From Vulgatibacter sp. (lineage in GTDB: Bacteria; Myxococcota; Myxococcia; Myxococcales; Vulgatibacteraceae): a DNA stretch of 64,000 nt. The notes under the pieces were generated by a model, which was given only the letters and a program-made list of their open reading frames with translations, did not search any database and had not been told where the DNA came from. The DNA lies in assembly GCA_035565615.1 (NCBI GenBank), contig DATMSB010000114.1, positions 989 through 64,988 on the forward strand, read 5' to 3'. Below, in pieces: positions 11,534 to 54,678 of this stretch. The number at the start of each line of letters is the position of its first letter. Position 1 is the stretch's first letter. The translations under genes and the position numbers were made by a program.

Positions 11534-12943
11534 ATGCTCAAGCAGAACGCACGCCTCGTCGATCTGGGGCTCCGTCTCACCGACTTGATCGTCCTCACGC
11601 TGACCCTACCGCTCGCGCACTGGGGCTACTCGGTCGCGCCCATGGCCCGCGCGGTCGCGCCGCCTCTGGCGGAGCTGTGGGGACCCTTCGTCGGCGTGCT
11701 CCTGCTGTGGATCGCGATCTCCGGCTCCTTCCAGGTGTACGGCGCCTACCGCACGCGGCGCATCTCCTGGGAGATCTTCCGCATCGCGAGGTCGATGGGC
11801 CTCCTCGCGCTGCTCGTGCTGGCCGGGATCTTCGTCGCCACGGATTCGAGGCTCCCTCGCATCTTCGTGGGCCTCTACTTCCTGGGAGCCTTCGCGATGA
11901 TGGCGGCGAGTCGTTTGGTGCTACGCGTGGCGGCCCGGCTGCTGCGCCGCCGCGGCTACAACGTGCGGCGGTACGCGATCGTCGGCGTGGGGATCGGCGC
12001 GGAGGAGATCGCGACCATCTTCGAGCGGCAGCCGCAGTGGGGCTACCGGCTGGCGGGCTACATCCTCCCCGACGGAAACGAGTTCGTGCTCCCGGGCGAG
12101 ACGATCCTCGGCACGCTGGACGAGCTCGATCGGATCCTCGATCAGCACGTGCTCGACGAGGTGGTCTTCGCGGTGCCGCGCGATCGGCTGCCCCTCATGG
12201 CCGACGCGATCCACACCTGCGAGGAGCAGGGCGTGCGCGTCGTCGTCTCCCTGCAGCCCCTCCAGCTCGGCACGGGGCGCATGTCGCTCCTCGAGCTCTC
12301 GGGCCTGTCGATGCTCGTCTTCGACCGCACCCCCAGCGATCCGATCGCGCTCGCGGCGAAGCGGGCCTTCGACGTGGTGGTCAGCGCGATCGCGCTGGTG
12401 GCGCTCTCCCCGCTCTTCGTCGCCGTGGCGGCGGCGATCAAGCTCGATTCGAAGGGGCCGGTCTTCTTCCGCCAGACCCGGGTGGGCCTCAACGGCCGCC
12501 CGTTCTCGATGGTGAAGTTCCGCTCCATGTACCAGGACGCGGAGGCGCGTCTGCAGGCCCTCCGCGATCAGAACGAGATGAGCGGGCCCGTCTTCAAGAT
12601 GAAGAACGATCCGCGGATCACGCGGGTGGGGCGCATCATCCGCAAGCTCTCCATCGACGAGCTGCCGCAGTTCTGGAACGTGCTCACCGGGACGATGAGC
12701 ATCGTCGGGCCCCGCCCGCCGCTGCCGGCCGAGGTGCGCCAGTACGAGCGGTGGCAGCGGCGGCGGCTCTCGGTGAGGCCGGGGATCACCTGCACCTGGC
12801 AGGTGAGCGGGCGGAACTCGATCCCGTTCGATCGCTGGATGGAGCTGGACCTCGAGTACATCGACAACTGGTCGCTCCAGCAGGACCTGAAGATCTTCCT
12901 GAAGACGATCCCGGCGGTGGTTTCCACGCGCGGGGCGCGTTGA
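11534..12943 (+). CDS. polyprenyl-phosphate glycosylphosphotransferase (WcaJ/EpsZ-type priming sugar transferase)
   Basis: N-terminal TMs, Rossmann-like middle domain, and the PGT core KRAFD...FRQTRVG...KFRSM...[21 protein letters not shown]...[12 protein letters not shown]...DLEYI. Confidence 0.93.
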
Positions 12944-12974
12944 CTTCGTCGGCGCGGGGCTTCGGTCAGTCCCC

Positions 12975-13853
12975 TCAGAGCTCCGCGTCCAGGAAGCCGA
13001 CCAGAATCTTCTCGTATTCGTCCGGAGCCGCCTGATCGAATCCGCCGTGCCCCGCGCCCGGGACGAGCCAGGTCCGGCTGCCCGGCGGAAGCGCCTGCTC
13101 CAGCAGGGGGATCATCCACTGTCCCTCGTCCTCGGATCCCGCGATGAGGAGCACGCGCCTTGGCGCGATGGCGCCGAGCACGTCCACGGGTCGGACGGCG
13201 TCGAGATCGATGCCGCGCAGATAGTAGGGGAGGAGCGCCCCCAGCCACGAGGGCAGGCCGTGGCTCGGGAAGTCGAGCTCCAGGTTCTCGCGAAGGCTCG
13301 TCCCGGGCGAGAGGAGCACGACGGCGCGGAGCCCCCGGTCGCGGGCCGCCGCGTGGGCCAGCGCGTTGGCGCCGATCGAGAAGCCGATGGCACCGAGGCG
13401 CTCCCGATCCACCTCGGGCCGCCGGCGCAGCCAGTCGGCAGCGGCCTCGATGTCGAGCTGCTCCTTCTCGCCCATGGTGACGGTCGAGCCTTCGCTCTCA
13501 CCGTGGCCGCGCAGATCGAAGAGGAGCACGCCGTATCCGGCACGCACGAGGTAGCGGGCCTCCGGCAGGAGCCCGAGTCGCCCCTGACCGAGCCCGTGTG
13601 CGAGGAGCACGGTCTTGCCTAGGCGCGGCGGAACGAACCAGCCAAAGAGCTGCAGGCCGTCGCTGGTGCGGAACCGAGCGTCCTCGATCGGGCAGCTCTC
13701 ACCGGGCGGGCAGAGGTCCTTCGGCCGCTCCGGTCGGTCGCGCCCCACGTGGAACTGTTGGTCGCTTCGCATCGCGCCGCGGCCGATGAGGGCCGCAAAG
13801 GCGAGGACGCCGATGCCCATGAAGGCGACCAGGACGCTGCGAGCAGATCTCAT
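12975..13853 (-). CDS. alpha/beta-fold serine hydrolase with N-terminal membrane anchor/signal
   Basis: Hydrophobic N-terminus, [13 protein letters not shown], nucleophile GFSIG, then D (GSED) and H (GAGHG). ATG 13853 overlaps the PPTase stop. Confidence 0.85.
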
Positions 13854-14581
13854 GCGGCACCCTCCACGACCAGATCCTCTCCGCTCCACAAGTGGAGCTG
13901 CGGCTCGCCTCCCTCGACGGCGAGCGCGGCGGCGTACCCTTCCGGTACGGGGAGATCCCGCAGCCACCAACGGCGCGGGTCCATCCCTTCGAGGAGCCGG
14001 GCATCGTCCCGGGCGAGGGTCACGGAGAAGGTGGTGGTGGGTAGGAGGAAGCCGCCGCCCTCGGCCTTGAGGATCGCCTCCTTCCGCGCCCACAGGCGGA
14101 AGAAGGCATCGGCCTGCGCGGAGGGCTCCATTTCGAGGAGCGCCGCCTGCTCGCGGGACGAGAAGACGGTGCTCGCGATCGAATGGATATCGACCCCGCT
14201 GTGTCGCTCGACGTCGACGCCGAGCTCGCGGTTGCGCGCGATCGCCACGAGGACCAGGTCGCCGGAGTGCGAGACGTTGAAGCCGACGCGGACTCCTGCG
14301 TCGGGTGCGAGCACGGGCTTTCCGTGTGGACCTTCTGCCAGCGGCACGCGCACCGGGCTGCAGCCGAGGATGCGGCCGAGGAGGAGGCGAAGCGAGACGC
14401 GGCCCGCCCGAAACCGGCGGCGGTCGATCTCGGCCCGAAACGCAGCGGAGCGCCGCCTCTCCCCCTCGTCCAGAAGGCCCTCCAGCCCCGCACCCGCGCC
14501 GGCCCCCGAGACGTCGATCCCGATGACGTGGACCGACCCTTCCGCGAAGTCGTCTGCGGCGAGCGCGGGCCAGTCGTTCAT
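13850..14581 (-). CDS. Sfp-type 4'-phosphopantetheinyl transferase
   Basis: GKP, FNVSHS, GVDVE and WARKEA motifs. ATG 14581 overlaps the upstream stop. Confidence 0.93.
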   Translation of the reverse strand: MNDWPALAADDFAEGSVHVIGIDVSGAGAGAGLEGLLDEGERRRSAAFRAEIDRRRFRAGRVSLRLLLGRILGCSPVRVPLAEGPHGKPVLAPDAGVRVGFNVSHSGDLVLVAIARNRELGVDVERHSGVDIHSIASTVFSSREQAALLEMEPSAQADAFFRLWARKEAILKAEGGGFLLPTTTFSVTLARDDARLLEGMDPRRWWLRDLPVPEGYAAALAVEGGEPQLHLWSGEDLVVEGAA

Positions 14582-15435
14582 GTGCCAGTCCGCAAAGATT
14601 GCTTCTCGCCGAATCGTTCCTCGATCCAAACGGCGAGCCGCTCCACCAGGGTTCGGCGGTGGTCCAGCACCGAGAAGAGGTGGTCGGCCTCCGGAACGAA
14701 GATCTCGTCGATGTGGCCCCGGAAGTCGCCCGGCAACATCTCGAAGAACTGTCCGCCGTAGCCGTAGGTGGGGTTGGCGCCGCCGGAGTAGACGGCGAGG
14801 ATCTGCACGCCGCGGTGCACGAGCTCCTCGAGCTGCCGCGAGAGCAGCTCCGGCGTCGGATAGTCGCGTCTGAAGATGCGATCCTCCTCGCCGATGCCGC
14901 GCTGCTGCTCGGCGGTGAGGCGAAGCCGTGCGAGCACGCTCCGGGCATAGCGGCGCCAGCGGCGGAGCGAGAGCAGCCGGGTCATGTACCAGCGCACGAG
15001 GAAACGGCGGGTGCGATAGGCGTAGCCTTCGATCCAGATCATCCCGGCCACGCGGGGATCCGCGAGGGCGACGCCGTGGGCGACGTCGGTGCCGGAGCAG
15101 AAGCCGATCACCACGAATTGCCTGACCCCGTGCTTGCGTTCGAGGTGGTCCATCGCGTCGCGCATGTCGAGGACGGCGCGCTCGGACTCGCTGGCACCGC
15201 CGATGCGGACGGCGCTGTCTCCCATGCCGGAGAGATCGAAGCGAAGCACGGGGAAGCCACTCGCGGCGAGGCGTCGGGCCAGCTCCACCCAGATCCGTCC
15301 CGGCCCGACGCGGGTCTGGATTCCTACGTTCGTCAGCAGGATCGCCGGCGCGTTCGCGATCCCGGCGGAGCGCGGCTCCGTGAGGATGCCGGTCAGGCCG
15401 CGGCGGGGCCCGAAAGCTTCGACCCGCTCCTTCAT
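14578..15435 (-). CDS. alpha/beta-hydrolase with Cys nucleophile (resembles exosortase-A-associated hydrolase 1)
   Basis: RVGPGRIWVELARRLAASGFPVLRFDLSGMGDS, elbow GFCSG, His in EADHLF. ATG 15435 overlaps the upstream stop. Confidence 0.8.
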   Translation of the reverse strand: MKERVEAFGPRRGLTGILTEPRSAGIANAPAILLTNVGIQTRVGPGRIWVELARRLAASGFPVLRFDLSGMGDSAVRIGGASESERAVLDMRDAMDHLERKHGVRQFVVIGFCSGTDVAHGVALADPRVAGMIWIEGYAYRTRRFLVRWYMTRLLSLRRWRRYARSVLARLRLTAEQQRGIGEEDRIFRRDYPTPELLSRQLEELVHRGVQILAVYSGGANPTYGYGGQFFEMLPGDFRGHIDEIFVPEADHLFSVLDHRRTLVERLAVWIEERFGEKQSLRTGT

Positions 15436-16180
15436 ACCTTTCCCTCTTGGAGCGCCGCGACCAGGGTGCGCAGCACCTCGTCTCCCAGTGCGCCCGAGGG
15501 TGCCGCCGGCTGGATGCGGAGCTCGATCGCCCGCGCCTCCCTCTCCAGTTGTCCGGCGAGCTCCCGCTGGTCGGGCCTGTCGTCCGCGGCGAGCATCACG
15601 ACCCGGCCCTTGAACCCGTCCGCCGCTCCGAGCAGGTCGAGGCCCGAGAGATCCTGCCGCAGGCCGTGCACCATGGGATACCCGAGGACGGCGTTCTCGT
15701 CGCGGGGGACGGGATGGCGTGACCAGCGGCGGCGGTCCTCCTCGAGGTCCTCCAACTCCTGCAGGTAGCGGCTTCCCCGTACCACGGGCTCCCACAGGAC
15801 GACGTCGCCCACGTCCTTGCGGGCGCAGGCCACCTCCAGCGCCAGCGCCGCGCCCAGACGAAGCCCGACGAGCGAGACGCTCCGCAGGCCGGCGAGCCCC
15901 TTGAGCTCGTCGATTGCAGCGCCGACGTCCCTTCGCCACGTCGCGAGGGAGCCCTCCTCGAGCTCGCCGGCCGAATCTCCGGTTCCCGTGTAGTCGAAGC
16001 GAAGGACGTGGAAGCCCGCGTGGGCGAGGCGTACCGCCAGTTTCCGGAAAGGCCAGTGGGCGTGCTCGTACTCCATGAAGAGCGGATAGCAGAGCACCAC
16101 GCCCGAGCGGCGATCGGCCGCGTCGGGCGGGTGGTAGACACCGAAAAGATGGTGCTCGCCGGGACCGAAGAAGAAGGGTG

Positions 16181-16184
<4 letters not shown>
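15432..16184 (-). CDS. catalytically degenerate alpha/beta-hydrolase (resembles exosortase-A-associated hydrolase 2)
   Basis: LRFDYTGTGDSAG and elbow GLRLG (Arg at the nucleophile position), no obvious C-terminal catalytic His. GTG 16184 overlaps the NRPS stop (GTGA). Confidence 0.78.
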
Positions 16185-22591
<6,407 letters not shown>

Positions 22592-22611
22592 GTTCGCTCC
22601 AAAATGACGGT

Positions 22612-29277: not shown

Positions 29278-29317
29278 TGACCCCCCTGGAGGGTTCGACT
29301 GAACTCATGGTGCGCGG

Positions 29318-29346
29318 ATGATCGCGGCGGTCGGATCGGCCGTCAA
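29318..29346 (-). promoter_or_regulatory. candidate sigma70-type promoter for the NRPS/PKS operon
   Basis: Minus strand TTGACG-N17-GATCAT, about 40 nt upstream of ATG 29277. Confidence 0.35.
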
Positions 29347-29373
29347 TACCGCTTCCATGGGATCGAAGGGGCT

Positions 29374-30045: not shown

Positions 30046-30112
30046 CGGCGACGAATTGTGCCTGGGCGCCGATTCGATGCTATGACCGCCCACCTTCGGA
30101 GCGACGAGAGCG

Positions 30113-32053: not shown

Positions 32054-32108
32054 CCGCACGGGCGGCATCGATTGGATTGACCGGAACCGTCATGCTAGGT
32101 TCCGCGCG

Positions 32109-33527: not shown

Positions 33528-33672
33528 CTTGTTCCCTTTGGCGGACACCAGCAGGCACCGCCCTAGTTCATGTCCATTGCCGCGTGTCGAGCTACGTCCG
33601 GAAAACTTCGTGAGCGCCACGATCAACTCAACGTTTCCATGCGCTGGTTTCGAGCAGTCCAGGAGATGAATC

Positions 33673-34824: not shown

Positions 34825-34915
34825 GCTTGAAATATTCAGAGCATTGACCGGCACCCTCTCGATCATGAAGCCGGTCATCGCTCCAGGTGAAAATCGAGTT
34901 GGGTGCCGGGCAACA

Positions 34916-36439: not shown

Positions 36440-36506
36440 TCCACCACCGATGGCGATGTCTTATGGTAAGCCAAAATCATTCTGGCCATTCTCGCAACAA
36501 ACCTGC

Positions 36507-38060
36507 TCAAGCGGTTTGTCTGCTCTGAGGCCACGCTCCAGTCGCCACCGCCAGCTTAGAGGCGAGCGACATCGAAAGAGCCGCAGCGAGTTTGTATTGA
36601 ATGAAATGCGAGCCCGTATCTCCCCATGCTACCGCAAGACAAGCAACGACGCTCGCGATGCAAATGGCCGCAGCAATTCTTTCGAATAGAGTTCGTGAGA
36701 ACCGCTCTGCGCGAACGGCAAGGAAGACGACGAACAAATAGGGCAGCCATAAGGCCGCAAATCCTGGAAGGCCGGCGAGCAACAGGAGGCCAAGAATCGT
36801 GTTGTGTGGCCATCCCTTGTAGTCGGCGTAGTGTTGAGAGATGTCATCGTTGAACATGTGCTCGACATACTCTCCGCCTAGGCCGATTCCAAGGATGGAA
36901 CTCTCTCGAATGCTCACGGCGATGTTCCAGGTCTCTCTTTCTCGCCACAGCGTCGAGTGGTCCACCTTCGAATCCAACATCGTCCGAATCTTGGCGATCG
37001 GTACGAAGAGACCCCCTAACTGCGTGTTATTCCATCCGATGGCGAGGTATGCCAGAAGCAATGGTGCAGAGATTGCGGAAATTCTAACTATCCTAGACTT
37101 CCACGGTCTCCAACTCGAACAGAGAAAGACGACAACCATCGCCATGGCGAGAATGGCCCAAACTAGCCTTCGGCCGTTTAGGACCATCCCCCATATGGGA
37201 AGCGGCAGGAGAATCGCGGCCCATACGATCGAGCGCCAAGTCCATGTCTCCAGCACGGAAATCACCAAGACGAGCACCGCCAGAGCGAAAAGGATGGAGT
37301 CTCCATGGTTGGTGGCAGTCGCTAGCATGCCACCGGTCAGCTTCGGCGCGACAACGAGCTGTACATATGCTGCGATTAGCGCCTTGACTTGAGCTGCAGC
37401 CACCAGCGCCAATCCGATCGCATGGAAATCCTCAGGGTGTCGAAGCGTGGTTTGGAAGAGCAGGAAAAACATGGGGATATGAAGCAGATAGCGAACCTTC
37501 CAAAGCGCGAGGCCATGACCATTCAGTAGGCTCATGCCAACAGCGAAGAGACACCCTGCCACGAGGAGAATGATGCAGCTTCGCATCACGCCCGCGGTCT
37601 GGACGGCTCGACGTCCCTCGAAGTCGGGGCGGGTCGCCCGTCGGAAGGCGGCAATGGCCAAGAGCACGACGGTGACCACTTCGAATCCGGCAACTGGAAG
37701 GCGACTTACATTGGAGAACCCATATCCCAATAGATCGCCGATGTGAACCAAGGGGCTTGCCCAGATGCCGTGCGCATCGGTCGAAATCTCGAGCGAGAGA
37801 ATCAGGAACACGAGGACCGTGGCGGACCAGCGCAGTGGAACCCGCGCCAAGACGAAGAGCAGCCCCACAACGAGTGGTGGCGCGACAGCCATTACAGGGT
37901 TCCCGCCGGTCGCGACCACACCTACGACGATCAGCAGGCCCGTCCCCAGCGCGACGACCGTAGCGAGCGACCCGTCGAGCGCATTGGCCGGAAACTCGCG
38001 AGTTTCGTAGGTAGGCCCTACGGCGTCAGCCGTGCGGAACGAAGAACCGCGTGTGCCCAT
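36507..38060 (-). CDS. wzy: Wzy polymerase / O-antigen ligase-family membrane protein
   Basis: Multi-TM protein with NGRRLVW, periplasmic loop STLWRERE...LGIGLGGEY...PHNTILGL (Wzy_C-like). Adjacent to wzx. Confidence 0.82.
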   Translation of the reverse strand: MGTRGSSFRTADAVGPTYETREFPANALDGSLATVVALGTGLLIVVGVVATGGNPVMAVAPPLVVGLLFVLARVPLRWSATVLVFLILSLEISTDAHGIWASPLVHIGDLLGYGFSNVSRLPVAGFEVVTVVLLAIAAFRRATRPDFEGRRAVQTAGVMRSCIILLVAGCLFAVGMSLLNGHGLALWKVRYLLHIPMFFLLFQTTLRHPEDFHAIGLALVAAAQVKALIAAYVQLVVAPKLTGGMLATATNHGDSILFALAVLVLVISVLETWTWRSIVWAAILLPLPIWGMVLNGRRLVWAILAMAMVVVFLCSSWRPWKSRIVRISAISAPLLLAYLAIGWNNTQLGGLFVPIAKIRTMLDSKVDHSTLWRERETWNIAVSIRESSILGIGLGGEYVEHMFNDDISQHYADYKGWPHNTILGLLLLAGLPGFAALWLPYLFVVFLAVRAERFSRTLFERIAAAICIASVVACLAVAWGDTGSHFIQYKLAAALSMSLASKLAVATGAWPQSRQTA

Positions 38061-38208
38061 ATGCCACGTAATAGTAGTAGATTACTAAAAAAGTAAGGAA
38101 CCAGGCGACCATTCTCAGGCTACCCTTTACCGGATCGGGATGTCTTGCCGCGATCGCCGGGATTGCAAAGGTCATCCAAATTATGGACATCAGTAGAAGT
38201 GTTTTCAC
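38026..38208 (-). CDS. small 60-aa two-TM membrane protein overlapping the wzy start
   Basis: MKTLLLMSIIWMTFAIPAIAARHPDPVKGSLRMVAWFLTFLVIYYYYVAYG: helix-(RHPDPVKG)-helix. GTG start, 35-nt overlap with wzy. Confidence 0.65.
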   Translation of the reverse strand: MKTLLLMSIIWMTFAIPAIAARHPDPVKGSLRMVAWFLTFLVIYYYYVAYGHTRFFVPHG

Positions 38209-38345
38209 CTATATGCCGGTCCTATAGCGCAGAGCATCTTCGCATCGAGTGCCGGAACCGGTGGAGGCCGGTTTGAAATGGTATTGGCTCCCGCCGGAGG
38301 CTTGCCTGGGGCTCAAGCACTTTCGGAGGTGATGAGCGCTGCAGT

Positions 38346-41045
38346 TCAGGGACCCATGAGCTGATCGAAGCGTTCGTACGCTGGAAGCCCTCCCAGGACC
38401 TCCCCATCGTCGCTTTCAGGCGTAACCCACGGCCAATTCTTGTCGCCAAAGAACGGGGGCTTTGCCTCGAGGTAGAGAGATGGAGGAAGGTCCTGTCTCT
38501 GAATCCCGGCGTCCCAGACGATTCCGCGAGTCACGAAGTCGTAATTGCCATGACGAATCGTGGTTGCTACCACTTGAGCGTCCTGACCGTTCTTTCCCGC
38601 GTTGTGTTCTACTCCGACCGCCCATATGGGGACTGGATCCCATTTCCAAGGAGGCGAAACCCGCTCGTAGATGAAGCCTGACTGCGGTGCTGCCACCATG
38701 TCGCTGCTGCCCAGTACGTTTCCGATGAAGGTGGTCCAAAGCTGCCATTCAGGAACCTCCACGAAACGACGTGCAATCTCGTCCGTCAGTTGCAGCGGCG
38801 GCACAGAGCGCCGTCTGCCGTTTACGTGATTGCGGAAGAACGTTATGTAGATGCTGTTTCCCCAGTACGCATCGCCCCCGATGTTCCAGGTCTCGTTTCC
38901 CTCGAAGAGCTCGTGATGCGGAGCGGCGTAGTGAGCCGCACTTAGACCGACTTCTGGAATATTGGGATAACCTGCACCCCATCCATCTTCGAAATAGTTG
39001 TAGCCGATGACGTTACCACCTCCGCTTGCACGCATTGTTATGACTTTGTTGAAATTCCAGACGATGTTGTTCTCGAGGAGGTTGTCGGCCGAATACGTGG
39101 TGATGTCTATGCCGTAGCCACCGCCGCCGGGGTTCGGGTTGACCGTGCTGTGAATGAACGAATCGCGGAGGACGCTTCGGAAGGCGTAGGTAAAGGACAC
39201 GCTGCTACCCTCACTCCGAACCGACTCGACGTTCTTCGCCCACGAGTAGGAGGTTCCGGTAAAGGGAATGTTGCCCTGCCCTCCGCTACCTCCGTCGACC
39301 AGGATATCCTCAAGACCGATCCACTTTCGTGTAGGCCTGACGGGCCCACCGGGCTCATCTCCTGAGAACCGAACGATCTGTGCTTCGTTGGAGGTGTAGT
39401 ATGTCAATCGAAGGGGCGTGGTGAAGGTGAGGGTGTTGCCGTCTACCCCGGCGATCTCCAGGACCTGCCCGGTCGGGCGATTCTGTCGGCAGAACCACCT
39501 GCGATTTCCATCGTTCGGGTCGGTCTGGTTGACCGTGTTCCACCAAGAGCCGACCCGGTCGGTGTCCACTAGCTGATCGATGAACACCAGCTCACCGACC
39601 GAATAGCCGGGGTTGTTGACTACGGTTACTTGCGTCGCGCCGTGGGGCGCGTCCGCGGCAAGGTCGATGGGAGTCGAGAACTTGATCCATAACTGCCCGA
39701 TCTGAACCACAGGCATGTTGGATCCTGGCGCCTTGATCAGTCGGGTCGCGTTGGCGCCGCGCGGCCCCTGGCCACGCAAAGTTACGAAGCTGGGAATGAC
39801 CAAACCATTTCCACGGATGAAGTAGTCGCCGGCCGCCAGAAATACGATTTTCCGCGCGTTCTCTCTGGCAATCGCTCCGGCTGCATTGAGCGCAGCTTGA
39901 ATGGCATTGGATGCGTCCGTGGTTCCGTTCGCGAGTGCGGGGTCGACAGAAAAACCGCTGAATGGGTCTCCGTCCGGGACATAGACGGTTGCAGGGCGAA
40001 CGGGATCTGAGTCCAATGGGATTCCGCCGACGGCGTTCAAGCCTGGGTTCCACCGCGTCTGTCGGTCCGGCGGCAAGAGGCCCGTGGCGTCCGTGCTACT
40101 CGGACGAACAACGGCGACCTCGGCGACCGCGCTCTTCGACGGGTCGACAACGCTCGTCGCGACGATATTGAACGAACCCGGATTCGGAGGCGCGGAGTAG
40201 ACTCCGTTCGAGTCGATCGAGCCTCCCGTGTCACCTTCCTGTACTTTCCATGTAACTGCTTGGTTGTCGGTGCCGCGCAGTCTTGCCTGAAACTGGACGC
40301 TCCCGTTGGTCACGACCTCGACGATCGCTGGCTCGATTGTAACGGAGATTGGTTCGCGGACCGAAACGGTTGCAGTCCCACGAGCACTCGGATCAAATGT
40401 AGAGGTGGCGACGACTGTGAACGTACCTGCCGAAGGGGGTGCCGTATATTGTCCGCTCGAATCGATTTTCCCGCCGGCATCCCCTTGCTCGACCGTCCAC
40501 GTCACGGATTGGTCGGAAATCCCAGTGACGACTGCCTTGAACTGCTGCGTTCCGAGAGAGGAGACTTCGACTTCCGCTGGCTCTATTTTGATCTGGGCGT
40601 GGTGGTGTCCGGATCCGCCTGCTCCTCCGGACCCGCCTATTCCTCCGGTTCCGCCAACTCCTCCGGCGCCACCGGCCCCCCCCGTTCCAGGAACGACCTC
40701 TCGGACAATCACCTTCGCAGTGCCTTGTAGCCTTGGATCTATGATGCTGACAGCGATGACGGTGAACACCCCTGGAGAAGATGGAGCGGTGTAGAAGCCA
40801 TTCGGGTCGATTGTGCCCCCATCGGGTTCTGCAATACTCCATGTAACCGCGTTCGCGCTCGCATCGTTTACGGTCGCCGTGAACTGCTGAGTCTCGCCAC
40901 TGCTGACGTCCGCCTGCGCCGGATGGACCTCGACCGTGATCGCGTTGGGCGGACCCAAGACGCGCTCTTGCTTCGCTGTGCATGCGGCGCCGACGGAGAG
41001 GAAGGCGAGCGGTAGGACCATTGGGGCCAAGCGAACGCGAATCAT
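38346..41045 (-). CDS. lipoprotein: 3 Ig-like repeats + right-handed beta-helix (pectate-lyase-like) domain
   Basis: GGAGG RBS before ATG 41045, lipobox GAAC, three ~80-aa repeats (V.P....V....QF.A.V......VTW......G.ID..G.Y.AP...G.F...A.S..DP), a Gly-rich linker, then TDASNAIQAALNAA...IVFLAAGDY and Asn-rich beta-helix coils. Confidence 0.82.
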   Translation of the reverse strand: MIRVRLAPMVLPLAFLSVGAACTAKQERVLGPPNAITVEVHPAQADVSSGETQQFTATVNDASANAVTWSIAEPDGGTIDPNGFYTAPSSPGVFTVIAVSIIDPRLQGTAKVIVREVVPGTGGAGGAGGVGGTGGIGGSGGAGGSGHHHAQIKIEPAEVEVSSLGTQQFKAVVTGISDQSVTWTVEQGDAGGKIDSSGQYTAPPSAGTFTVVATSTFDPSARGTATVSVREPISVTIEPAIVEVVTNGSVQFQARLRGTDNQAVTWKVQEGDTGGSIDSNGVYSAPPNPGSFNIVATSVVDPSKSAVAEVAVVRPSSTDATGLLPPDRQTRWNPGLNAVGGIPLDSDPVRPATVYVPDGDPFSGFSVDPALANGTTDASNAIQAALNAAGAIARENARKIVFLAAGDYFIRGNGLVIPSFVTLRGQGPRGANATRLIKAPGSNMPVVQIGQLWIKFSTPIDLAADAPHGATQVTVVNNPGYSVGELVFIDQLVDTDRVGSWWNTVNQTDPNDGNRRWFCRQNRPTGQVLEIAGVDGNTLTFTTPLRLTYYTSNEAQIVRFSGDEPGGPVRPTRKWIGLEDILVDGGSGGQGNIPFTGTSYSWAKNVESVRSEGSSVSFTYAFRSVLRDSFIHSTVNPNPGGGGYGIDITTYSADNLLENNIVWNFNKVITMRASGGGNVIGYNYFEDGWGAGYPNIPEVGLSAAHYAAPHHELFEGNETWNIGGDAYWGNSIYITFFRNHVNGRRRSVPPLQLTDEIARRFVEVPEWQLWTTFIGNVLGSSDMVAAPQSGFIYERVSPPWKWDPVPIWAVGVEHNAGKNGQDAQVVATTIRHGNYDFVTRGIVWDAGIQRQDLPPSLYLEAKPPFFGDKNWPWVTPESDDGEVLGGLPAYERFDQLMGP

Positions 41046-41532
41046 CGAAACCTCCAGCCGTTCCAGAATCCGGCCCCCAAGGTCTATTGCGGAGTCGCAC
41101 TGGATGATAGCTCCAGCGAACACTTCGTCGGTTGGGCCCTGGCGCGCCCAAGATAGCATCCTTTCGGCGGCATGCACGCTCGCCTTGCGTGCTGGCCAAC
41201 GCCAACGGCTCATGCCACGGCGGCGTCAGGGCATGCCTCCGAGCCCGGATCCAGTGGCGCAGGCTCTTCGCGGCCGCGGGCGTCGCGGACCCCCTGCCGG
41301 CAACCGCGGTGACGAATTTGCGGCTCTCGGCCGAGCTGACCGGTCAGACGGTGACCAGCCGCGTTTCGAGGCACTTCCCTATAGGGGCCGCGCTCCAGGG
41401 AGCTGATAGAGCGGATCGAATGGGAGGCGCGAGCCCCGTCGCGGAGGCCTGGCTGGCTAGGTATGGCGACCCGTGGTAGGGTGCCGCGCTGCCGAACAAG
41501 AGCGCCCGATCCGATCTTCTGTGAAGCCCCTC

Positions 41533-42171
41533 ATGCTTGCCCGCCCCTTCCGAACAACGGCTCTGGGCCCCATCGCTGCCCTTCTCCTGGTCATCCCCTT
41601 CGGTTTCTCGCTGCAAGGCTGCGCGACCAGCGCGCCGTATCGGTGGGTCGACGACGCGCCGGCCGGGCACGAGGACCCGAACGTGTACCGGATCGCCGCT
41701 CGCGACGTGATCAGCGTCCGCGTCTGGAACCAGGAATCCATGGGAATGGAGCGGGCACGGGTCCGCGAGGACGGGAAGATCTCGCTTCCGTTCCTGAAGG
41801 ACGTGAGCGTCGTGGGGATGACGCCGAACGAGCTCAGCGAGAAGTTGCAGAAGGAGCTGGTGTCCCTGATCGTCGAACCGATCGTGACCGTGACCCTGGA
41901 GGAGCCCGCTCCCCTGAACGTCTCGGTGATCGGCGAGGTCGCGACCGCTGGGGCCTTCACGATGCCGCGGCCTGCCGGCGTGCTGCAGGCGATCGCCGCC
42001 GCAGGTGGCCTCACCCCCTACGCGGATCGCGACAGCATCTACGTGCTGAGGCGGCTCGCGCCGGCGATCCCTCCCACTCGGATCCGCTTCCGCTATCGAG
42101 ACCTCACGAGCGGTGGAACCCCGGCTGCCGCCTTCCTCCTCAAGAGCGGCGATGTCGTCGTCGTGGAGTGA
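41533..42171 (+). CDS. wza: short OPX/Wza-family polysaccharide export lipoprotein (EpsY-like)
   Basis: Lipobox LQGC, YRIAARDVISVRVW, VREDGKISLPFL (Poly_export), a single SLBB (VSVIGEV...LQAIAAAGGLT). Ends at LKSGDVVVVE with no OM helix. Confidence 0.9.
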   Translation: MLARPFRTTALGPIAALLLVIPFGFSLQGCATSAPYRWVDDAPAGHEDPNVYRIAARDVISVRVWNQESMGMERARVREDGKISLPFLKDVSVVGMTPNELSEKLQKELVSLIVEPIVTVTLEEPAPLNVSVIGEVATAGAFTMPRPAGVLQAIAAAGGLTPYADRDSIYVLRRLAPAIPPTRIRFRYRDLTSGGTPAAAFLLKSGDVVVVE

Positions 42172-43388
42172 CCTTGATCGCGGCGCTCCTCGGCGCAATC
42201 TCGCTGTTCTCGCTCGGTCCGCTCGGGGACATCGAGGCGGATGCAGGGGTTCAAGCGGGTTCGAGGCTGCGGGTCGTCGACGAGCAGGAGCGGCCGGGCC
42301 AGGGGACTTCATCTCAGGATCGCAGGGTCGGCGAGTTCGACCTGGGGCCACGCCTCACGCTCACGAATGACGCGAGATTGCGGCTCGCTCTCACCTACGC
42401 ACCCACCTTGCACGTGCCGATGGAGCTGGCGCCTGCGGAAACGCCCGAGGGCCAGACTCTCTCTCAGGTGGAAGGTGCGACCTACCTGCACAACGCGGAG
42501 CTTCGTGCAGAACGGCCTCTGGGTCGCTGGGTGCTCCGCGGCAGCGCCGGTGCCTCGTATGGGTCCCTCGACCCGCTCGCTTCCGGCGCACTGCCGGGAC
42601 AACCCCTCGTCGGTACGGCGCGGATTCCGTACCGGGCCCTCACGCTTTCCGCTGGCGTCACTTTGACTCCGTCGTCGCGCACGCTCGTGTCCCTCGACGC
42701 CGGCGCGTCCTCGAGCGGCGGCGATGGGACGGTGGCGGAGCAATCGCTACCGACGCAGCGCGACCTCCGTGTCGACGGCGCGTTCGACCTGCGAGCCACG
42801 CGGAGGGACACCTATGGGGCGCTGCTCTCCTTCGCTGGCGCTCGCGTCCAGCGAGGAAGCGACTCGGTCGCCCTGCGAGCCGGAGGAAGTTGGACGCGCG
42901 GACTGACGCCACGTCATTCGCTGCGCCTCTCCGGTGGCGCCGCGGTGGCGCGGGAACAGAGCTTGGGTGGCGACAACCCCGGCGTCCTGCCTTGGGCGGA
43001 GGGTTCGCTCGCGTATTCGCCCGGTGAGCGACGCCCCACCCTCGCGGTGACGCTGGGGGCCCAGCCCGCGATCGACCGCCTCACGGGTGCCGTGGACGTC
43101 CGCGGGTTCGTCGAGGCTCGGTCGGCGTGGGCGCCGGCTCGTGACTGGGCGTTCGGCGTCTCGGGCCAGGCGGCCGTTCTCGAACCCTGGCTCGGCTATC
43201 AGGGGCAGGAGGTTTCGCGGACCTGGACGGGAGGGGTGGGGATTCGAATGGATCGATCCCTCGGCAGGTTCCTGACCGCCGGCGCCGGAGTGTTCTCGAC
43301 GTGGCAGCGCAGCGGTCGCGAGGATCTGGCGACGTTCCGCGAGGTCGTCGCCATGCTGGATCTGGTCGCGACACTGTCGCCGCGCTGA
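42168..43388 (+). CDS. probable outer-membrane beta-barrel partner of OPX (EpsX/Wzp-like)
   Basis: GTG overlaps the OPX stop. Signal peptide followed by alternating amphipathic beta-strands (RLRLALTYAP, LSAGVTLTP, SWTRGLT, FLTAGAGV). Confidence 0.7.
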   Translation: MTLIAALLGAISLFSLGPLGDIEADAGVQAGSRLRVVDEQERPGQGTSSQDRRVGEFDLGPRLTLTNDARLRLALTYAPTLHVPMELAPAETPEGQTLSQVEGATYLHNAELRAERPLGRWVLRGSAGASYGSLDPLASGALPGQPLVGTARIPYRALTLSAGVTLTPSSRTLVSLDAGASSSGGDGTVAEQSLPTQRDLRVDGAFDLRATRRDTYGALLSFAGARVQRGSDSVALRAGGSWTRGLTPRHSLRLSGGAAVAREQSLGGDNPGVLPWAEGSLAYSPGERRPTLAVTLGAQPAIDRLTGAVDVRGFVEARSAWAPARDWAFGVSGQAAVLEPWLGYQGQEVSRTWTGGVGIRMDRSLGRFLTAGAGVFSTWQRSGREDLATFREVVAMLDLVATLSPR

Positions 43389-43542
43389 CGCCCGCCGGTC
43401 GCCTTCCGGGCGGTCCGGCTCGCCCATGCCTTTCGCTCGATCGTGGTCCCGCATTCGTGGGAGTGACGGCCGACGATGGCGTGGGTACGTTCCGCCCCGC
43501 TGACTACCGCAGGCCACCCAAGGTCAGATCGGGGTCCAAGTC

Positions 43543-44580
43543 ATGGGTGAACGCTGCACCGGAACGTCGAGACGCTACGTCTTGATCTCACCTTGCCGCA
43601 ACGAGGCGGCCTTCATCCGTCGCACGCTCGACAGCGTGGCGGCCCAGACCGTTCCGCCTGCGCTCTGGGTGATCGTGGACGACGGTTCGTCGGACGACAC
43701 GCCGAGGATTCTCGAGGAGTACTCCAAGAAGCTTCCCTACCTTCGAGTGATTCGGCGCAGCGATCGGGGTCGCCGCGCCGTGGGGCCGGGCGTGGTCGAG
43801 GCGTTCTACGAAGGTCTCGGAACGCTGGACCTCGACGAGTACGACTACGTCTGCAAGCTCGACGTCGACCTCGAGCTGCCCGAGCGCTACTTCGAGCTCC
43901 TCATGGTGCGCATGGAGGCCGATCCACGGCTCGGGACCTGCTCCGGTAAGCCCTGGTTCCATCACCCGATCGGCGATCACCTCGTCCCCGAGACCTGCGG
44001 CGACGAGATGTCGGTGGGGATGTCCAAATTCTACAGGGTGGAGTGCTTCCGTGAGATCGGTGGGTTCGTCCGGCAGGTGATGTGGGACGGCATCGACTGC
44101 CACCGTGCGCGGATGCTCGGGTGGATCGCGCAGGCCTTCAACGACGAGGCGCTCAGGTTCATCCACCTGCGGGCCATGGGTTCGAGCGACCGAGGGATCC
44201 TCACGGGACGCGTTCGCTACGGCTTCGGTCAGTACTTCATGGGAACGTCCCCCCTTTTCCTCGTGGCGAGCGCGGTGTTCCGCATGCTCAAGCACCCGGC
44301 GATCACGGGGAGCATGGCCACGCTCTGGGGCTTTTTCTGGAGCGCGGTGAAGGGACTCCCCCGCTACGAGGACCCGGAGTTCAGAAAGTTCGTCCGCCGC
44401 TACCAGCACATGGCCTTGCTGATGGGCAAGCGCCGGGCGATCGCGAGGTTGAATCGCGAGCGAGCCACCGTGTGGGAAGCGCGTCAACGGCGCCGAGTTT
44501 CGGCGAATAGTGCCGCACCCGCTTTGGTGAAGGCCCCGGTTCAGGCGCAGGCCCGCGTTGCGGGCGGCATCCGGGCTTGA
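43543..44580 (+). CDS. GT2-family glycosyltransferase
   Basis: ISPCRNEA, WVIVDDGSSDDT, KLDVD (DxD). Confidence 0.9.
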   Translation: MGERCTGTSRRYVLISPCRNEAAFIRRTLDSVAAQTVPPALWVIVDDGSSDDTPRILEEYSKKLPYLRVIRRSDRGRRAVGPGVVEAFYEGLGTLDLDEYDYVCKLDVDLELPERYFELLMVRMEADPRLGTCSGKPWFHHPIGDHLVPETCGDEMSVGMSKFYRVECFREIGGFVRQVMWDGIDCHRARMLGWIAQAFNDEALRFIHLRAMGSSDRGILTGRVRYGFGQYFMGTSPLFLVASAVFRMLKHPAITGSMATLWGFFWSAVKGLPRYEDPEFRKFVRRYQHMALLMGKRRAIARLNRERATVWEARQRRRVSANSAAPALVKAPVQAQARVAGGIRA

Positions 44581-45968
44581 GCGATAGCAAAGTGCGCGTC
44601 CTCCTCCTCGCAGAAAGCGCCAATCCGGAATATTCGAGCGTCGCACTCGTCGGCTGGAGCCTCGCTCAGGCGATTGGCGGATCCGCGGATGCCCACCTCG
44701 TCACCAACGTCCACAACGTCGATGGAATCGAGAGGGCGGGCTGGCGCGAGGGCCGCGAGTTCACCGCGGTGGACCCAAGTCGCGTCCAGCGCCCGATCTA
44801 CCGGGTGGAGGAAGCGATCCGCAAGGCGACGGGGCTGGGCTGGACCTTCAAGACGGCGCTTTCGACGATCCCGTACGCCTACTTCGAACATCTCGTTTGG
44901 CGCAGGTTCGGTGAAGCGATTCGGCGGCGCGAGTTCGACCTGGTGCATCGGCTCACGCCAGTGAGCCCGGCCGTCCCGAGCCCGATCGCGCTGCACTGCA
45001 GGGCGGTAGGAGTGCCGTTCGTCCTGGGCCCGATCAACGGCGGCGTTCCGTGGCCGAAGGAGTTTCGCGGGGCCCAGCGGAGCGAGGGCGAATGGCTCTC
45101 GTATCTCAGGGGGCTGCTGGGGCTGATGCCTGGTTTTCACTCCACGAGGCGAGCGTCGTCGGCCATCCTCGCCGGATCGCGGCAAACCTGGAGTGAGCTG
45201 GAGCGGTACCGCGCAAAGAGCATCTACCTCCCCGAGAACGCCGTCGACCCAATCCGTGTCTCGGCGGTGCGCGGCTCGCGCGGCAGCTCACCGTTGCGCG
45301 TCGCCTATGTGGGACGTCTCGTGGCGCTCAAGGGCGTGGACATGTTGATCGAGGCGGGTGCCCCGCTGATCCGCTCGGGACGGATGACGCTCGACATCAT
45401 CGGCGACGGACCCGAGATGCCGAATCTGCGCCGGCAGATCGCACAGGAAGGGATCGAGGCCGGGGTCACGATGTCGGGATGGATTCACGATCAGCGCGAG
45501 ATCGCGCCCCGGCTGGCTCGTGCCGACGTGTTCGGATTCCCGAGCATCCGAGAATTCGGTGGTGGGGCCGTGCTCGAGGCCATGGCGATTGGGCTCGCGC
45601 CCGTCGTCGTGGATTACGCGGGCCCCAGCGAGTTGGTCACGGATGCAACCGGATTTCGAGTTCCGATCGGCCCACGAGACTCGATCGTGGCCGGGTTTCG
45701 ACGAATCCTCGAGCGGCTGATCGACCAGCCCGAGCTGGCGAGAGCGGTGGGCGAGAAGGCGCGGGCGCGGGTGTACCGGTACTTCACGTGGGACGTGAAG
45801 GTCCGGCAGATCGTCGAAGTGTACCGTTGGGTGTTGGGGCGAGGCGATCGCCCCGACTTCGGGATGCCGTTCCCGGACGTGGACGAGCCCGAAGGGGAAG
45901 TGGCGTCGGGCCAGGGCGGGCAGGTGCCCGCGCCGACCAAGGAAGGCCGTTCGCGCGAAGCCTCCTAG
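44577..45968 (+). CDS. GT4-family glycosyltransferase
   Basis: YVGRLVALKG, FPSIREFGGGAVLEAMAIG. TTG start overlaps the GT2 stop. Confidence 0.9.
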   Translation: MSDSKVRVLLLAESANPEYSSVALVGWSLAQAIGGSADAHLVTNVHNVDGIERAGWREGREFTAVDPSRVQRPIYRVEEAIRKATGLGWTFKTALSTIPYAYFEHLVWRRFGEAIRRREFDLVHRLTPVSPAVPSPIALHCRAVGVPFVLGPINGGVPWPKEFRGAQRSEGEWLSYLRGLLGLMPGFHSTRRASSAILAGSRQTWSELERYRAKSIYLPENAVDPIRVSAVRGSRGSSPLRVAYVGRLVALKGVDMLIEAGAPLIRSGRMTLDIIGDGPEMPNLRRQIAQEGIEAGVTMSGWIHDQREIAPRLARADVFGFPSIREFGGGAVLEAMAIGLAPVVVDYAGPSELVTDATGFRVPIGPRDSIVAGFRRILERLIDQPELARAVGEKARARVYRYFTWDVKVRQIVEVYRWVLGRGDRPDFGMPFPDVDEPEGEVASGQGGQVPAPTKEGRSREAS

Positions 45969-47230
45969 CCCGACGCGGTCATGGCCTCGGAGGTCGTCTG
46001 TCGAACCGATCCTCGAAGCTCCCGCAGGAACCCTTCCATCCGCTCGGCGATCGCGGCCCAGGAGTATGTGGTTTCCACGACCTTCCGACCCGCGTCGCCC
46101 AGCCGGTGTGCGAGAGCGGGATCTTCGAGCAATCGAAGGGCCGCCGAGGAAAACGCCTCCGGGTCGTCGGCGATGAGGATGTGCCGTTCGGCTTCGAGGG
46201 CGATTCCCTCCGCTCCGAGCGCGGTCGAGACGATCGCCTTTCCCATCGCGAGCGACTCCAGGATCTTCAACCTCGTACCGCCACCGATTCGCAGCGGTAC
46301 GATGATCGCCGTGGCCTCCGCGAGGTGCCGCTGCAGGTCGTCGACCAGGCCCGCGATCTCCACGTCGGGGCCGTGTTGTGCCAGGACGTCCGGCGGGGGG
46401 TGAGAGCCGATGATCTTCAGTCGAACGTCCGGACTCCGCTTCGCAATCCGGGGCCAGATGTCGCCCAGCAGCCAACGGACGGCGTCGAGGTTCGGAAAAT
46501 AATTCATGGTTCCGAAAAACAGGAGCGTCGGCCTTGCGTCCGGTGCAGCGTTCCGAGGTCGGAACTGCTCGGTGTCGACGCCGTTTGGAACGACCGCCGA
46601 TCGGATCTCGGGGTAGAACGCGCGCGCCCGGGCCTCGTCGTCGGGGGAGGTGAACGCGACTCCGTCCACCATGCGCCACGCACGAAGCTCTTCCCGCCGA
46701 AGTTTTCGCCAATTGAGTGCGTGATAAACCCGGCGCGAGAGGCCGGTCGACATTTCACCGTATTGCCTCGCGAGATCGAACTCGACGTTGTGTGCATCCA
46801 CGATCACGTGAGGGGGCGGGTGCCCTGGAGGAGCGGATCGAAATCGGCTGAAGGCCATGAAGGGGGTTTCGACGCTCACCACGTCGAACGGACGAGCACG
46901 GAGAATCCGATCGAGCTCGCGCTGAAGCCCCGGCTGGTTCATGTACCGGCGTTCGTAGCTCTTCGTCGATCCCAGGGAGCGGAGTTGGGAGATCCTCTTC
47001 GATCGCCCGGCTGCCTCTCGACAGGGTACGAGGACGACCTCGTCGCAGTATTCCCGCATGGCCCGATAGGCGACGTCCCGGTCGAAATCCGGGGGACAAA
47101 GGCCCACGAACGACACTCTGTTTCGGGAGGCGAGCGACCGCATCAGGCCCTCGAGACGACGTTGGGCGCCGAAGGTCGCCGGGCTAGCGGGGAACGACGA
47201 GACGAACAGCAGTTTCAGAGCCGAGGGCAT
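45965..47230 (-). CDS. GT4-family glycosyltransferase (polysaccharide-locus type)
   Basis: VPNGVD, FFGTMNYFPNLDA, VPLRIGGGTRLKILESLAMG. Confidence 0.9.
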   Translation of the reverse strand: MPSALKLLFVSSFPASPATFGAQRRLEGLMRSLASRNRVSFVGLCPPDFDRDVAYRAMREYCDEVVLVPCREAAGRSKRISQLRSLGSTKSYERRYMNQPGLQRELDRILRARPFDVVSVETPFMAFSRFRSAPPGHPPPHVIVDAHNVEFDLARQYGEMSTGLSRRVYHALNWRKLRREELRAWRMVDGVAFTSPDDEARARAFYPEIRSAVVPNGVDTEQFRPRNAAPDARPTLLFFGTMNYFPNLDAVRWLLGDIWPRIAKRSPDVRLKIIGSHPPPDVLAQHGPDVEIAGLVDDLQRHLAEATAIIVPLRIGGGTRLKILESLAMGKAIVSTALGAEGIALEAERHILIADDPEAFSSAALRLLEDPALAHRLGDAGRKVVETTYSWAAIAERMEGFLRELRGSVRQTTSEAMTASG

Positions 47231-54625: not shown

Positions 54626-54678
54626 GCAGGCAACCTACCGATGGAGTGGCGGACCGGCAACGTGCTAAGTCGGCTGAC

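Follow-up and report, generated by a model that had tools for sequence, protein, structure and literature searches.

The stretch of DNA studied here raises the question of why a modular assembly line for a short acyl-peptide chain should lie among genes for the making and export of a polysaccharide. The stretch (hereafter the window) comprises 64,000 nucleotides of Vulgatibacter sp. (Myxococcota; GenBank assembly GCA_035565615.1, contig DATMSB010000114.1, positions 989 to 64,988), and positions are counted from its first nucleotide. From 29931 to 12975, on the minus strand, runs an operon that encodes, from 5′ to 3′, a small protein, a hybrid of nonribosomal peptide synthetase and polyketide synthase (NRPS-PKS), an NRPS, two proteins of α/β fold called here hyd2 and hyd1, a 4′-phosphopantetheinyl transferase (PPTase), and an exported hydrolase. 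The hybrid and the NRPS form the assembly line (hereafter the line). On one side the operon is flanked by a gene for a priming phosphoglycosyltransferase (PGT) and, on the other, by genes for AsnB, a polysaccharide co-polymerase (PCP), Wzx, Wzy, an outer-membrane polysaccharide export protein (OPX), and four glycosyltransferases (GTs). The arrangement is no chance juxtaposition, since a relative with 84% identity keeps it and distant relatives repeat the association. The explanation that we favor, and to which we give about an even chance, is that the line, which has no thioesterase (TE), makes a short acyl chain whose acceptor would be a lipid-linked sugar or glycan that the PGT initiates; the Wzx/Wzy/PCP/OPX proteins would then export the product.

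The gene map rests on a listing of the open reading frames (ORFs) of the window with their third-position G+C, followed by Pfam and NCBIfam scans (Table 1). An earlier note, made from the nucleotide sequence, had described an NRPS/PKS block inside a Wzx/Wzy exopolysaccharide (EPS) locus; in the ORF, Pfam, and NCBIfam results all the genes that it listed are present, each in its place. The translational coupling that it had claimed for the last five genes of the operon is present as well: four start/stop overlaps join NRPS, hyd2, hyd1, PPTase, and exported hydrolase, once with GTGA (NRPS/hyd2) and three times with ATGA. The PGT scores 425 bits with TIGR03025 (cut-off 295.55), as expected of a priming transferase of a Wzx/Wzy pathway; its ATG start at 11534 gives 469 amino acids (aa), and the orthologue in the related locus L001 has 468 aa. 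On the far side of the operon follow AsnB, PCP, and a GT4, then Wzx, Wzy_C, and an Ig-like protein on the minus strand, and then OPX, a 404-aa protein, a GT2, and two GT4. With its PGT, its Wzx and Wzy, and its PCP and OPX (the Wzy score is marginal and that of the PCP under the equivalog cut-off), the locus, to judge from its predicted genes, has the defining features of a Wzx/Wzy pathway, with the exception of a recognizable BY-kinase.

In the related locus with 84% identity (L090), the line lies between a PGT gene and genes for psK, AsnB, GT2, PCP, GT4, and an Ig-like protein. Those EPS genes occur in a different order (AsnB-GT2-PCP-GT4-Ig-like) and are 58%–72% identical to their counterparts in the window, versus 79%–88% for the line, which, together with the low G+C content of the block at 32–41 kb, suggests a faster-evolving or exchanged cassette. 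A relative with 62%–63% identity (L004 and L091) has GT2 genes upstream of the line, along with genes for hexapeptide transferases, an Orn/DAP-type decarboxylase, AsnB, an acyl carrier protein (ACP), and an AMP-ligase; a UDP-glucose dehydrogenase gene lies downstream. The non-megasynthase ORFs of 84 related loci were clustered and representatives scanned against Pfam. The recurrent neighbors are cupin/JmjC-like proteins (25 loci), PPTase (20), PGT (19), hyd2 (18), GT2 (14), hyd1 (12), and Wzy_C (12) and, more rarely, Wzx, polysaccharide deacetylase, and Acyl_transf_3 (six each).

Glycan genes (PGT, GT2, Wzy_C, Wzx, and deacetylase) were counted in the 70 loci of at least 15 kb, with a view of ∼5 kb upstream and 2–4 kb downstream. 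At least one such gene is present in 42 of the 70 loci and at least two in 21; in Xanthomonadales, 24 of 27 loci have at least one. These counts are lower bounds, since in L006 and L089 the tblastn screen failed to detect divergent Wzx genes, which Pfam recovered. The earlier note had considered that homologous lines might occur mostly without polysaccharide genes; they do not, despite the narrow view. The loci that bear glycan genes belong to Xanthomonadales, Burkholderiales, Bacteroidota, Cyanobacteria, Myxococcota, and Gemmatimonadota, often with those genes in one operon with the line, and sugar-polymer genes beside relatives of the line occur in at least five bacterial phyla or classes. 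A PGT adjoins the line in the window lineage, in Polyangiaceae, in many Xanthomonadales, in Ideonella, and in a Bacteroidetes metagenome-assembled genome (MAG). A Gemmatimonadaceae NRPS that ends in hyd2/hyd1 lies amid GT2, WecG, GT4, GT9, Wzy_C, and Wzz genes, and a gene named “exosortase A-associated hydrolase 2” by JGI comes after an NRPS beside GT2, DUF218, and cupin genes.

In Xanthomonadales, the PGT is sandwiched between the PPTase of the line and the NRPS-PKS. Two layouts, each on a single strand, occur there: PPTase-PGT-line-hyd2-hyd1-(GINT1_N-like)-Wzx-DUF218, and PGT-...-cupin-line-GT2-deacetylase-Wzy_C-(CapK/PaaK-like ligase). In Dyella, Luteibacter, and related genera (L025, L039, L046, L047, L051, L058, and L068), neither hyd2/hyd1 nor a TE is in view; in operons of this type, the NRPS is followed by a membrane GT2, a NodB-family deacetylase, and a Wzy_C protein; where the view extends far enough, at least in L047 and L051, a CapK/PaaK-like adenylating enzyme comes next. 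This set of genes recalls the logic of Nod factors, in which a sugar is deacetylated and then N-acylated.

The predicted chemistry of the line follows from its domains. The Stachelhaus codes are DVQFVAHVA for the first adenylation (A) domain, A1, and DILQLGMVW for both A2 and A3, so that the Pro, Gly, and Gly specificities given in the earlier note are supported. The motifs of the A, thiolation (T), ketosynthase (KS), acyltransferase (AT), ACP, and condensation (C, HHxxxDG) domains are intact, as are the carrier serines (GGHS), and the AT has the malonyl motif HAFH. By Pfam, there is no TE (no PF00975), no reductase (R), and no terminal C domain in the line, and the NRPS stops after T3, as had been claimed for the TE. 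On the other hand, the domain list of the earlier note was incomplete: it had overlooked a class-III aminotransferase (AMT) domain that terminates the NRPS-PKS. Across the 2221-aa and 2136-aa proteins, Pfam finds the order KS-AT-ACP-aminotransferase feeding a C domain, which is that of an AMT module. In the mycosubtilin/iturin and microcystin synthetases, β-amino acids are made by modules in which an AMT likewise follows KS-AT-ACP.

In the window, this AMT is decayed. The motif YGKV has become YGEV, with the catalytic Lys that forms the Schiff base with pyridoxal phosphate (PLP) replaced by Glu (aa 2006, codon GAG at 23260–23262). Lys occupies that column in 16 of 16 aligned relatives and in at least 96% of 49 full-length homologues, and the relative with 84% identity has retained it. 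There is also an in-frame deletion of 6 aa (∼23545–23589), and the domain deviates at 10 of the 112 columns that are conserved in at least 96% of the 49 homologues. In the KS, AT, and ACP, none of 187 near-invariant columns is changed, and seven other homologues have no deviation at the near-invariant AMT columns. An error of assembly was considered and rejected, because the ten substitutions and the in-frame deletion are confined to one domain and because the same sequence is recorded on contigs that differ in length and recurs on an identical 11-kb contig in an independent Logan assembly of a soil metagenome run (X1). We conclude from these changes that transamination has in all likelihood been lost in the window lineage and, since the AMT has no catalytic Lys, the keto group probably stays in the product. 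That product is most likely 3-oxo-3-(pyrrolidin-2-yl)propanoyl-Gly-Gly. The Pro-ketide-Gly-Gly unit proposed earlier fits the window in its ketide part, but the family at large makes a β-amino unit with its AMT. After the AMT, a tail of ∼50 aa (22612–22760) with the consensus PPVPGARLGRDPxGNPAWFVPxPxxPGKYxKL is strongly conserved from Myxococcota to Bacteroidota and is retained in the window although the AMT decayed; a possible role for this tail is to dock the C domain that follows.

Corallococcus, Polyangiaceae, Archangium, and many metagenomes contain close homologues of the 2221-aa hybrid that share its set of domains. The closest named relatives (Polyangiaceae, Sorangiineae, Corallococcus, and Archangium), as well as the matches to the EpsZ, EpsV, and SglT models, point to Myxococcota as the source lineage. 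A scan with an AMT alignment, taking one genome per species, finds AMT-type lines in at least 577 species, including Xanthomonadales, Burkholderiales, Nostoc and other cyanobacteria, Bacteroidota, and Myxococcota. The starter A domain selects Pro, a Val-like residue (DALWLGGTF), Thr, or Ser; in the family read-out with A1 as query, positions 299 and 301 are shifted by one residue, and DVQFVT.. there stands for DVQFVA... The second module mostly takes Gly, as does the third where it is present. Some Bacteroidota versions end in a TE, and PF00975 occurs also in some homologues of the hybrid. In Nostoc (L022, L032, L036, and L069), the domains of the hybrid are divided between an A-T and a KS-AT-ACP-AMT protein, preceded by an 891-aa phosphodiesterase/RTX-repeat protein, with cupin and Acyl_transf_3 genes between hybrid and NRPS. 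The commonest neighbor of the line, the cupin_8/JmjC-like protein (∼320 aa, sometimes in two copies; for example in L012, L017, L022, L025, and L038), probably hydroxylates a residue that is bound to a carrier; it has no homologue in the window.

How the chain leaves a line that ends in a T domain is suggested by hyd2 and hyd1, which follow the final T domain both in the window and in no fewer than 28 of the 70 related loci. The Ser nucleophile of a G-x-S-x-G elbow is absent from both and present only in the exported hydrolase (GFSIG). In hyd2, the elbow is G-x-R-x-G; all 120 homologues compared have the Arg, as do 135 of 145 representatives. In hyd1, the elbow is G-x-C-S-G; its Cys (C113) and a His close to the C terminus (H252) are shared by all 120 homologues, and D251 by 116 of them. 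The AlphaFold2 models (pLDDT 91 for hyd1 and 93 for hyd2) both have the α/β-hydrolase fold. A search of 1.84 billion representative proteins with a hyd2-family profile gives 4,483 clusters at E ≤ 1e-30 (one representative per cluster at 50% identity), among which natural fusions occur: T-hyd2, C-A-T-C-T-hyd2, ER-KR-ACP-hyd2, and hyd2-hyd1. These fusions all retain the GxRxG and GLCSG motifs. Because the fusions place hyd2 at the usual position of a TE and link it to hyd1, the pair is best read as a putative two-part unit for chain release in place of a TE, with hyd2 as the putative carrier-docking, non-nucleophilic half and hyd1 as the putative catalytic half. An acyl-enzyme on the Cys of hyd1 would suit transfer to an acceptor as well as hydrolysis. 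Sequence searches of the PDB with hyd1 and hyd2, and Foldseek with the hyd1 model, returned only generic lipases and feruloyl esterases (LuxD at rank 47) and did not point to an acceptor. One protein of 1184 aa (P0379) contains several α/β-fold domains with three GxRxG elbows and one GLCSG, as in a multi-domain release unit.

The following scheme would account for these elements. The PPTase would prime the four carrier domains, A1 would load Pro, and the KS and AT would extend it with malonyl to a β-keto acyl-ACP, to which the two C-A-T modules would each attach a Gly. Elsewhere in the family, the AMT would convert the β-keto group to a β-amine and, when the starter is Val, Thr, or Ser, a 3,4-diamino acid would result. 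For release, hyd2 (with Arg and no nucleophile) may dock on the last carrier domain, and the Cys-His of hyd1 may take the chain as a thioester and hand it to an acceptor. To judge from the conserved gene neighborhood, that acceptor would be a polyprenyl-PP-linked sugar or repeat unit, acylated at a hydroxyl or an amine. The exported Ser hydrolase, which is linked to the line in Myxococcota, would meet the conjugate outside the cytoplasm; its action could be trimming, transfer, or removal. In this scheme, we infer the transfer of the chain to a sugar, the identity of the acceptor, and the role of AsnB.

Several observations weigh against such a conjugate. No glycan gene lies within ∼10 kb of the line in Corallococcus (L003, L005, and L008), in six of ten Burkholderiales loci (L030, L035, L037, L042, L048, and L087; Variovorax, Xenophilus, and Lautropia), or in a Flavobacteriales MAG (L088), the NRPS of which has a TE. 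In Archangium and in a Myxococcota MAG, the sole glycan-type neighbor is a MOP-family protein, possibly a mere exporter. The Xanthomonadales loci share descent, so that the number of glycan loci overstates the number of independent events. The decay of the AMT shows that, in the window lineage, one part of the line has come under relaxed selection, and the fold search with hyd1 gives only generic esterases and lipases. The loci without visible glycan genes would be explained if the product were a free, small, and polar peptide-ketide (Pro-ketide-Gly-Gly here and diamino-acyl-Gly(-Gly) elsewhere) that hyd2/hyd1 would set free through hydrolysis or cyclization and that a MOP- or OPT-type protein would export, with the proximity to EPS genes reflecting co-regulation, a shared role in matrix or surface, or the structure of the island. 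The existence of relatives with a TE, a lone Polysacc_synt gene next to the line in L006 and L089, an OPT transporter adjoining the window locus, and a starter amino acid that varies as in ordinary specialized metabolism agree with this, and, in view of the loci without visible glycan genes and of the Bacteroidota versions ending in a TE, it is possible that part of the family makes a free product. Overall, we consider a free product rather unlikely. The conjugate is the best supported of the explanations: a PGT has no obvious role in the making of a free peptide, but in one bacterial order (many Xanthomonadales) its gene shares an operon with the PPTase gene of the line, and in the four other lineages named above it adjoins the line. 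Moreover, GT2, deacetylase, and Wzy_C directly follow the NRPS in the second operon type, with no other release enzyme in view, and the nearest curated relatives of the hyd pair are defined by EPS loci.

The order of coupling could also be reversed: the peptide would be exported and a Wzy_C-family ligase (WaaL/PglL-like) would put the polyprenyl-PP glycan on it, or on a peptide-bearing acceptor of the envelope, in the periplasm, to give a secreted or surface glycopeptide. Wzy_C-family genes lie downstream of the line in 12 loci, the Lysobacter-type operons are a minimal PGT, Wzx, and line with no polymerase in view, and the exported hydrolase conserved in Myxococcota hints at a periplasmic step. 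We nevertheless regard this order as improbable, since the full set for polymer export in the window (PCP, OPX, and Wzy) suits a polymer, since no exporter of a free peptide is conserved across the family, and since the Cys-thioester chemistry of hyd1 fits direct transfer from the carrier domain in the cytoplasm. Finally, the line could be a decaying relic in this organism, next to an EPS locus that works without it. The state of its AMT, with the catalytic Lys lost, the 6-aa deletion, and ten near-invariant columns changed, would be expected of a relic, but the other motifs of the line are intact, the 0 of 187 changed columns in KS, AT, and ACP are not what a relic would give, 13 kb are free of frameshifts and stops, and the translational coupling is preserved. 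Damage limited to one tailoring domain fits altered chemistry rather than loss of the pathway, and a relic is accordingly very improbable.

A conjugate of this kind can be compared with known systems. The earlier note had linked the hyd pair to hydrolases 1 and 2 of the exosortase A (XrtA/EpsH) PEP-CTERM loci, and TIGR03100 and TIGR03101 are indeed the best NCBIfam matches of hyd1 and hyd2, though under the cut-offs. An AsnB-type gene and an EPS pathway adjoin in the window, and in L004 and L091 the likeness extends to the ligase, the ACP, and the Orn/DAP-type decarboxylase beside the line. Exosortase-A EPS loci also carry an acyl-CoA ligase, an ACP, and a PLP decarboxylase. On the other hand, the window has a six-domain PKS-NRPS and a two-module NRPS instead of a single ligase and ACP. 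The scores of the exosortase-A models are all under their cut-offs: 86 versus 168 bits for TIGR03100, 109 versus 203 for TIGR03101, 329 versus 817 for TIGR03108, 48 versus 279 for TIGR03007, and 232 versus 393 for TIGR03013. The Pfam scans of the genes called at 9–49 kb contain no match to an exosortase, and none of the scanned genes was seen to be of PEP-CTERM type (PEP-CTERM proteins were not searched genome-wide). Membership in the exosortase-A system was rejected on these two grounds. In the full-text literature searched, we found neither a characterization of the function of the exosortase hydrolase cassette nor a description of the AMT-line family or of the hyd2/hyd1 pair.

With MycA/ItuA (mycosubtilin/iturin) and McyE (microcystin), the line shares the order KS-(AT)-ACP-AMT followed by a C domain leading into an NRPS. 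The starter differs: lines of the window family begin with an amino acid (Pro, Val, Thr, or Ser) that an A domain loads, whereas those synthetases start from a fatty or polyketide chain. The window line differs also in having no TE or macrocyclization, a very short product, a neighborhood of glycan genes, and an AMT without catalytic Lys. DltABCD carries out the D-alanylation of teichoic acids, and NodF/NodE/NodA, with NodB/NodC, the N-acylation of a deacetylated chito-oligosaccharide. As in these two systems, a phosphopantetheinyl carrier would bear the activated acyl or aminoacyl group before its transfer to a sugar polymer, a likeness in logic only; with Nod there is the further likeness that, in operons of the Dyella/Rhodanobacter type, the line is accompanied by a membrane GT2 and by a deacetylase of the NodB family. 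Among the scanned genes of the window, there is no family match to MBOAT (DltB) or DltD, and no NodA homologue was seen. In contrast to Dlt and Nod, a multi-module line would serve as donor, and we propose as transferase a Cys-His protein of α/β fold with an Arg-bearing partner.

The polysaccharide side of the locus resembles the Wzx/Wzy systems of Myxococcus xanthus for EPS, biosurfactant polysaccharide (BPS), and spore coat. The PGT and PCP match the EpsZ and EpsV models of NCBIfam (356 and 252 bits), although far under the equivalog cut-offs of 800 bits. In the M. xanthus Wzx/Wzy pathways, a short OPX works with a separate β-barrel; in the window, a short OPX is followed by a 404-aa protein without family match. 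We know of no NRPS/PKS described inside the EPS, BPS, or spore coat loci of M. xanthus. In Xanthomonas albilineans and Alcanivorax borkumensis, the gene of a short NRPS (C-A-PCP-TE, where PCP is a peptidyl carrier; Gly) overlaps a glycosyltransferase gene (PMC3849588), and in Collimonas, the carenaemins need an NRPS/PKS locus and a separate, unlinked Wzy-type locus (PMC8313283). In these as in the window, a unit made by an NRPS, often with Gly, is tied genetically to glycosyl transfer. Those systems differ in having a TE, no KS-AT-ACP-AMT, and no hyd2/hyd1, and their predicted products are small and glycolipid-like or diffusible. The locus may then be seen as a variant of carrier-protein-based glycan decoration, set apart by its broad association and its unusual putative release unit; the link between chain and glycan is a predicted one.

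A wider proposal, plausible though somewhat short of probable, is that there is a widespread class of glycoconjugates in which an amino-acid-primed PKS-NRPS makes a (diamino)acyl-Gly(-Gly) unit that an Arg/Cys release unit would move onto polyprenyl-PP sugars, which would explain the hydrolase 1/2 genes of the exosortase-A loci too. The class would extend over Myxococcota, Xanthomonadales, Burkholderiales, Bacteroidota, Cyanobacteria, and Gemmatimonadota, and its products would be surface polysaccharides decorated with peptide-ketides. If the chain is truly attached to a glycan, natural products of assembly lines would be joined with surface polysaccharides, and a new type of polysaccharide substituent would result, cationic and peptide-like in relatives with an active AMT. 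The hydrolase 1/2 pair of exosortase-A EPS loci would gain a function, and genome-mining tools would gain a TE-free mechanism of release that they currently do not recognize. Carriers of AMT-type lines include culturable strains of Lysobacter, Dyella, Variovorax, Mucilaginibacter, Nostoc, and Corallococcus, so that attachment to a glycan is directly testable.

Table 1. Genes of the assembly-line operon and of the flanking polysaccharide locus in the window
Feature	Positions	Strand	Basis and remarks
Priming PGT, WbaP/EpsZ-like, CoA_binding_3 + Bac_transf	11534–12943	+	PF02397 241 bits, PF13727; convergent with operon
Ser α/β hydrolase, exported or membrane-anchored, S15/S33-like	12975–13853	-	Pfam Peptidase_S15, Abhydrolase_1, Hydrolase_4; GFSIG
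Sfp/HetI-type PPTase	13850–14581	-	PF01648, PF22624; NF042922 HetI 125 bits, under cut-off
hyd1, α/β fold, Cys nucleophile GFCSG, conserved Asp-His	14578–15435	-	TIGR03100 hydr1_PEP 86 bits, cut-off 168
hyd2, α/β fold, elbow G-L-R-L-G (Arg for Ser)	15432–16184	-	TIGR03101 hydr2_PEP 109 bits, cut-off 203
NRPS C-A(Gly)-T-C-A(Gly)-T, 2136 aa, C-terminal tail of ∼50 aa	16181–22591	-	Pfam on two halves
NRPS-PKS A(Pro)-T-KS-AT(malonyl, HAFH)-ACP-AMT, 2221 aa	22612–29277	-	Pfam and sequence; AMT ∼22700–24040
Small protein, ∼96 nt upstream of NRPS-PKS	29374–29931	-	Pfam/NCBIfam/PDB without meaningful match
AsnB-type glutamine-dependent amidotransferase	30113–32053	+	PF00733 and GATase domains; divergent from operon
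PCP, EpsV-like, without kinase domain	32109–33527	+	NF041864 EpsV 252 bits, under cut-off
GT4	33673–34824	+	PF00534, PF13439
Wzx-type flippase (MOP/Polysacc_synt)	34916–36439	-	PF01943 98 bits
Wzy-type polymerase/O-antigen-ligase family protein	36507–38060	-	PF04932 Wzy_C 35.2 bits, cut-off 31.7, marginal
955-aa protein, Big_2 (Ig-like) and pectate-lyase-like β-helix	38346–41213	-	PF02368; PF12708 under cut-off
Short OPX (Poly_export + SLBB)	41473–42171	+	PF02563 72 bits, PF10531
404-aa protein directly after OPX gene	42174–43388	+	Pfam/NCBIfam without match
GT2	43543–44580	+	Pfam; 72%-identical orthologue in L090
GT4	44577–45968	+	Pfam
GT4 (GT4c)	45965–47230	-	Pfam; 63%-identical orthologue in L090

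Two labels of the earlier note go back to a resemblance seen by eye. The first protein of the operon had been called “Wze-like”; to the eye, its fold is like that of BY-kinase/ParA proteins but degenerate, and neither its Walker A nor its Walker B motif is intact. However, Pfam and NCBIfam contain no match and the PDB no meaningful sequence match, so that the resemblance to Wze is one of eye only. An orthologue with 60% identity has the same position in L090. Likewise, the 404-aa protein had been named a β-barrel, a guess by eye that the empty Pfam and NCBIfam scans leave unconfirmed; it is possibly an outer-membrane β-barrel partner of the OPX. The exported hydrolase, the last gene of the operon, begins with a hydrophobic segment (a signal or anchor, as judged by eye), and it adjoins the line also in L001, L004, L005, L038, L062, and L091. 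AsnB scores 386 bits with TIGR01536, over the cut-off, and 329 bits with TIGR03108, the amidotransferase of the XrtA system (cut-off 817); its homologues flank the line in L004, L016, L060, L090, and L091 too. The PCP has a weak match to TIGR03007 and an orthologue with 60% identity in L090. The 955-aa protein, with a 58%-identical orthologue in L090, is possibly an enzyme that modifies or degrades a glycan.

The G+C content of the window is ∼70% and falls to 57%–63% at 32–41 kb; this block (32000–41000) spans the PCP, GT4, Wzx, Wzy, and Ig-like/β-helix genes. The last GT gene is adjoined by a gene for an OPT-family oligopeptide transporter (47276–49291, plus strand; PF03169, 293 bits), which could move a small peptide in or out. 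Further on (53525–57832), a UDP-GlcNAc 2-epimerase (minus), KdsB (plus), an NAD-dependent epimerase/dehydratase (minus), and a UDP-sugar dehydrogenase (plus) are encoded amid kdsA, lptA, and rpoN; the 2-epimerase and the UDP-sugar dehydrogenase could together provide a uronic acid such as ManNAcA. The left flank contains genes for an SNF2-family helicase of 1334 aa (2113–6117, minus), a GAF-PAS-GGDEF diguanylate cyclase (6387–8243, plus), and an NfeD/SPFH pair (9275–10845, minus). In L001, which belongs to the 84%-identical relative, synteny extends to the cyclase and the NfeD/SPFH pair, and the cyclase could control EPS through c-di-GMP.

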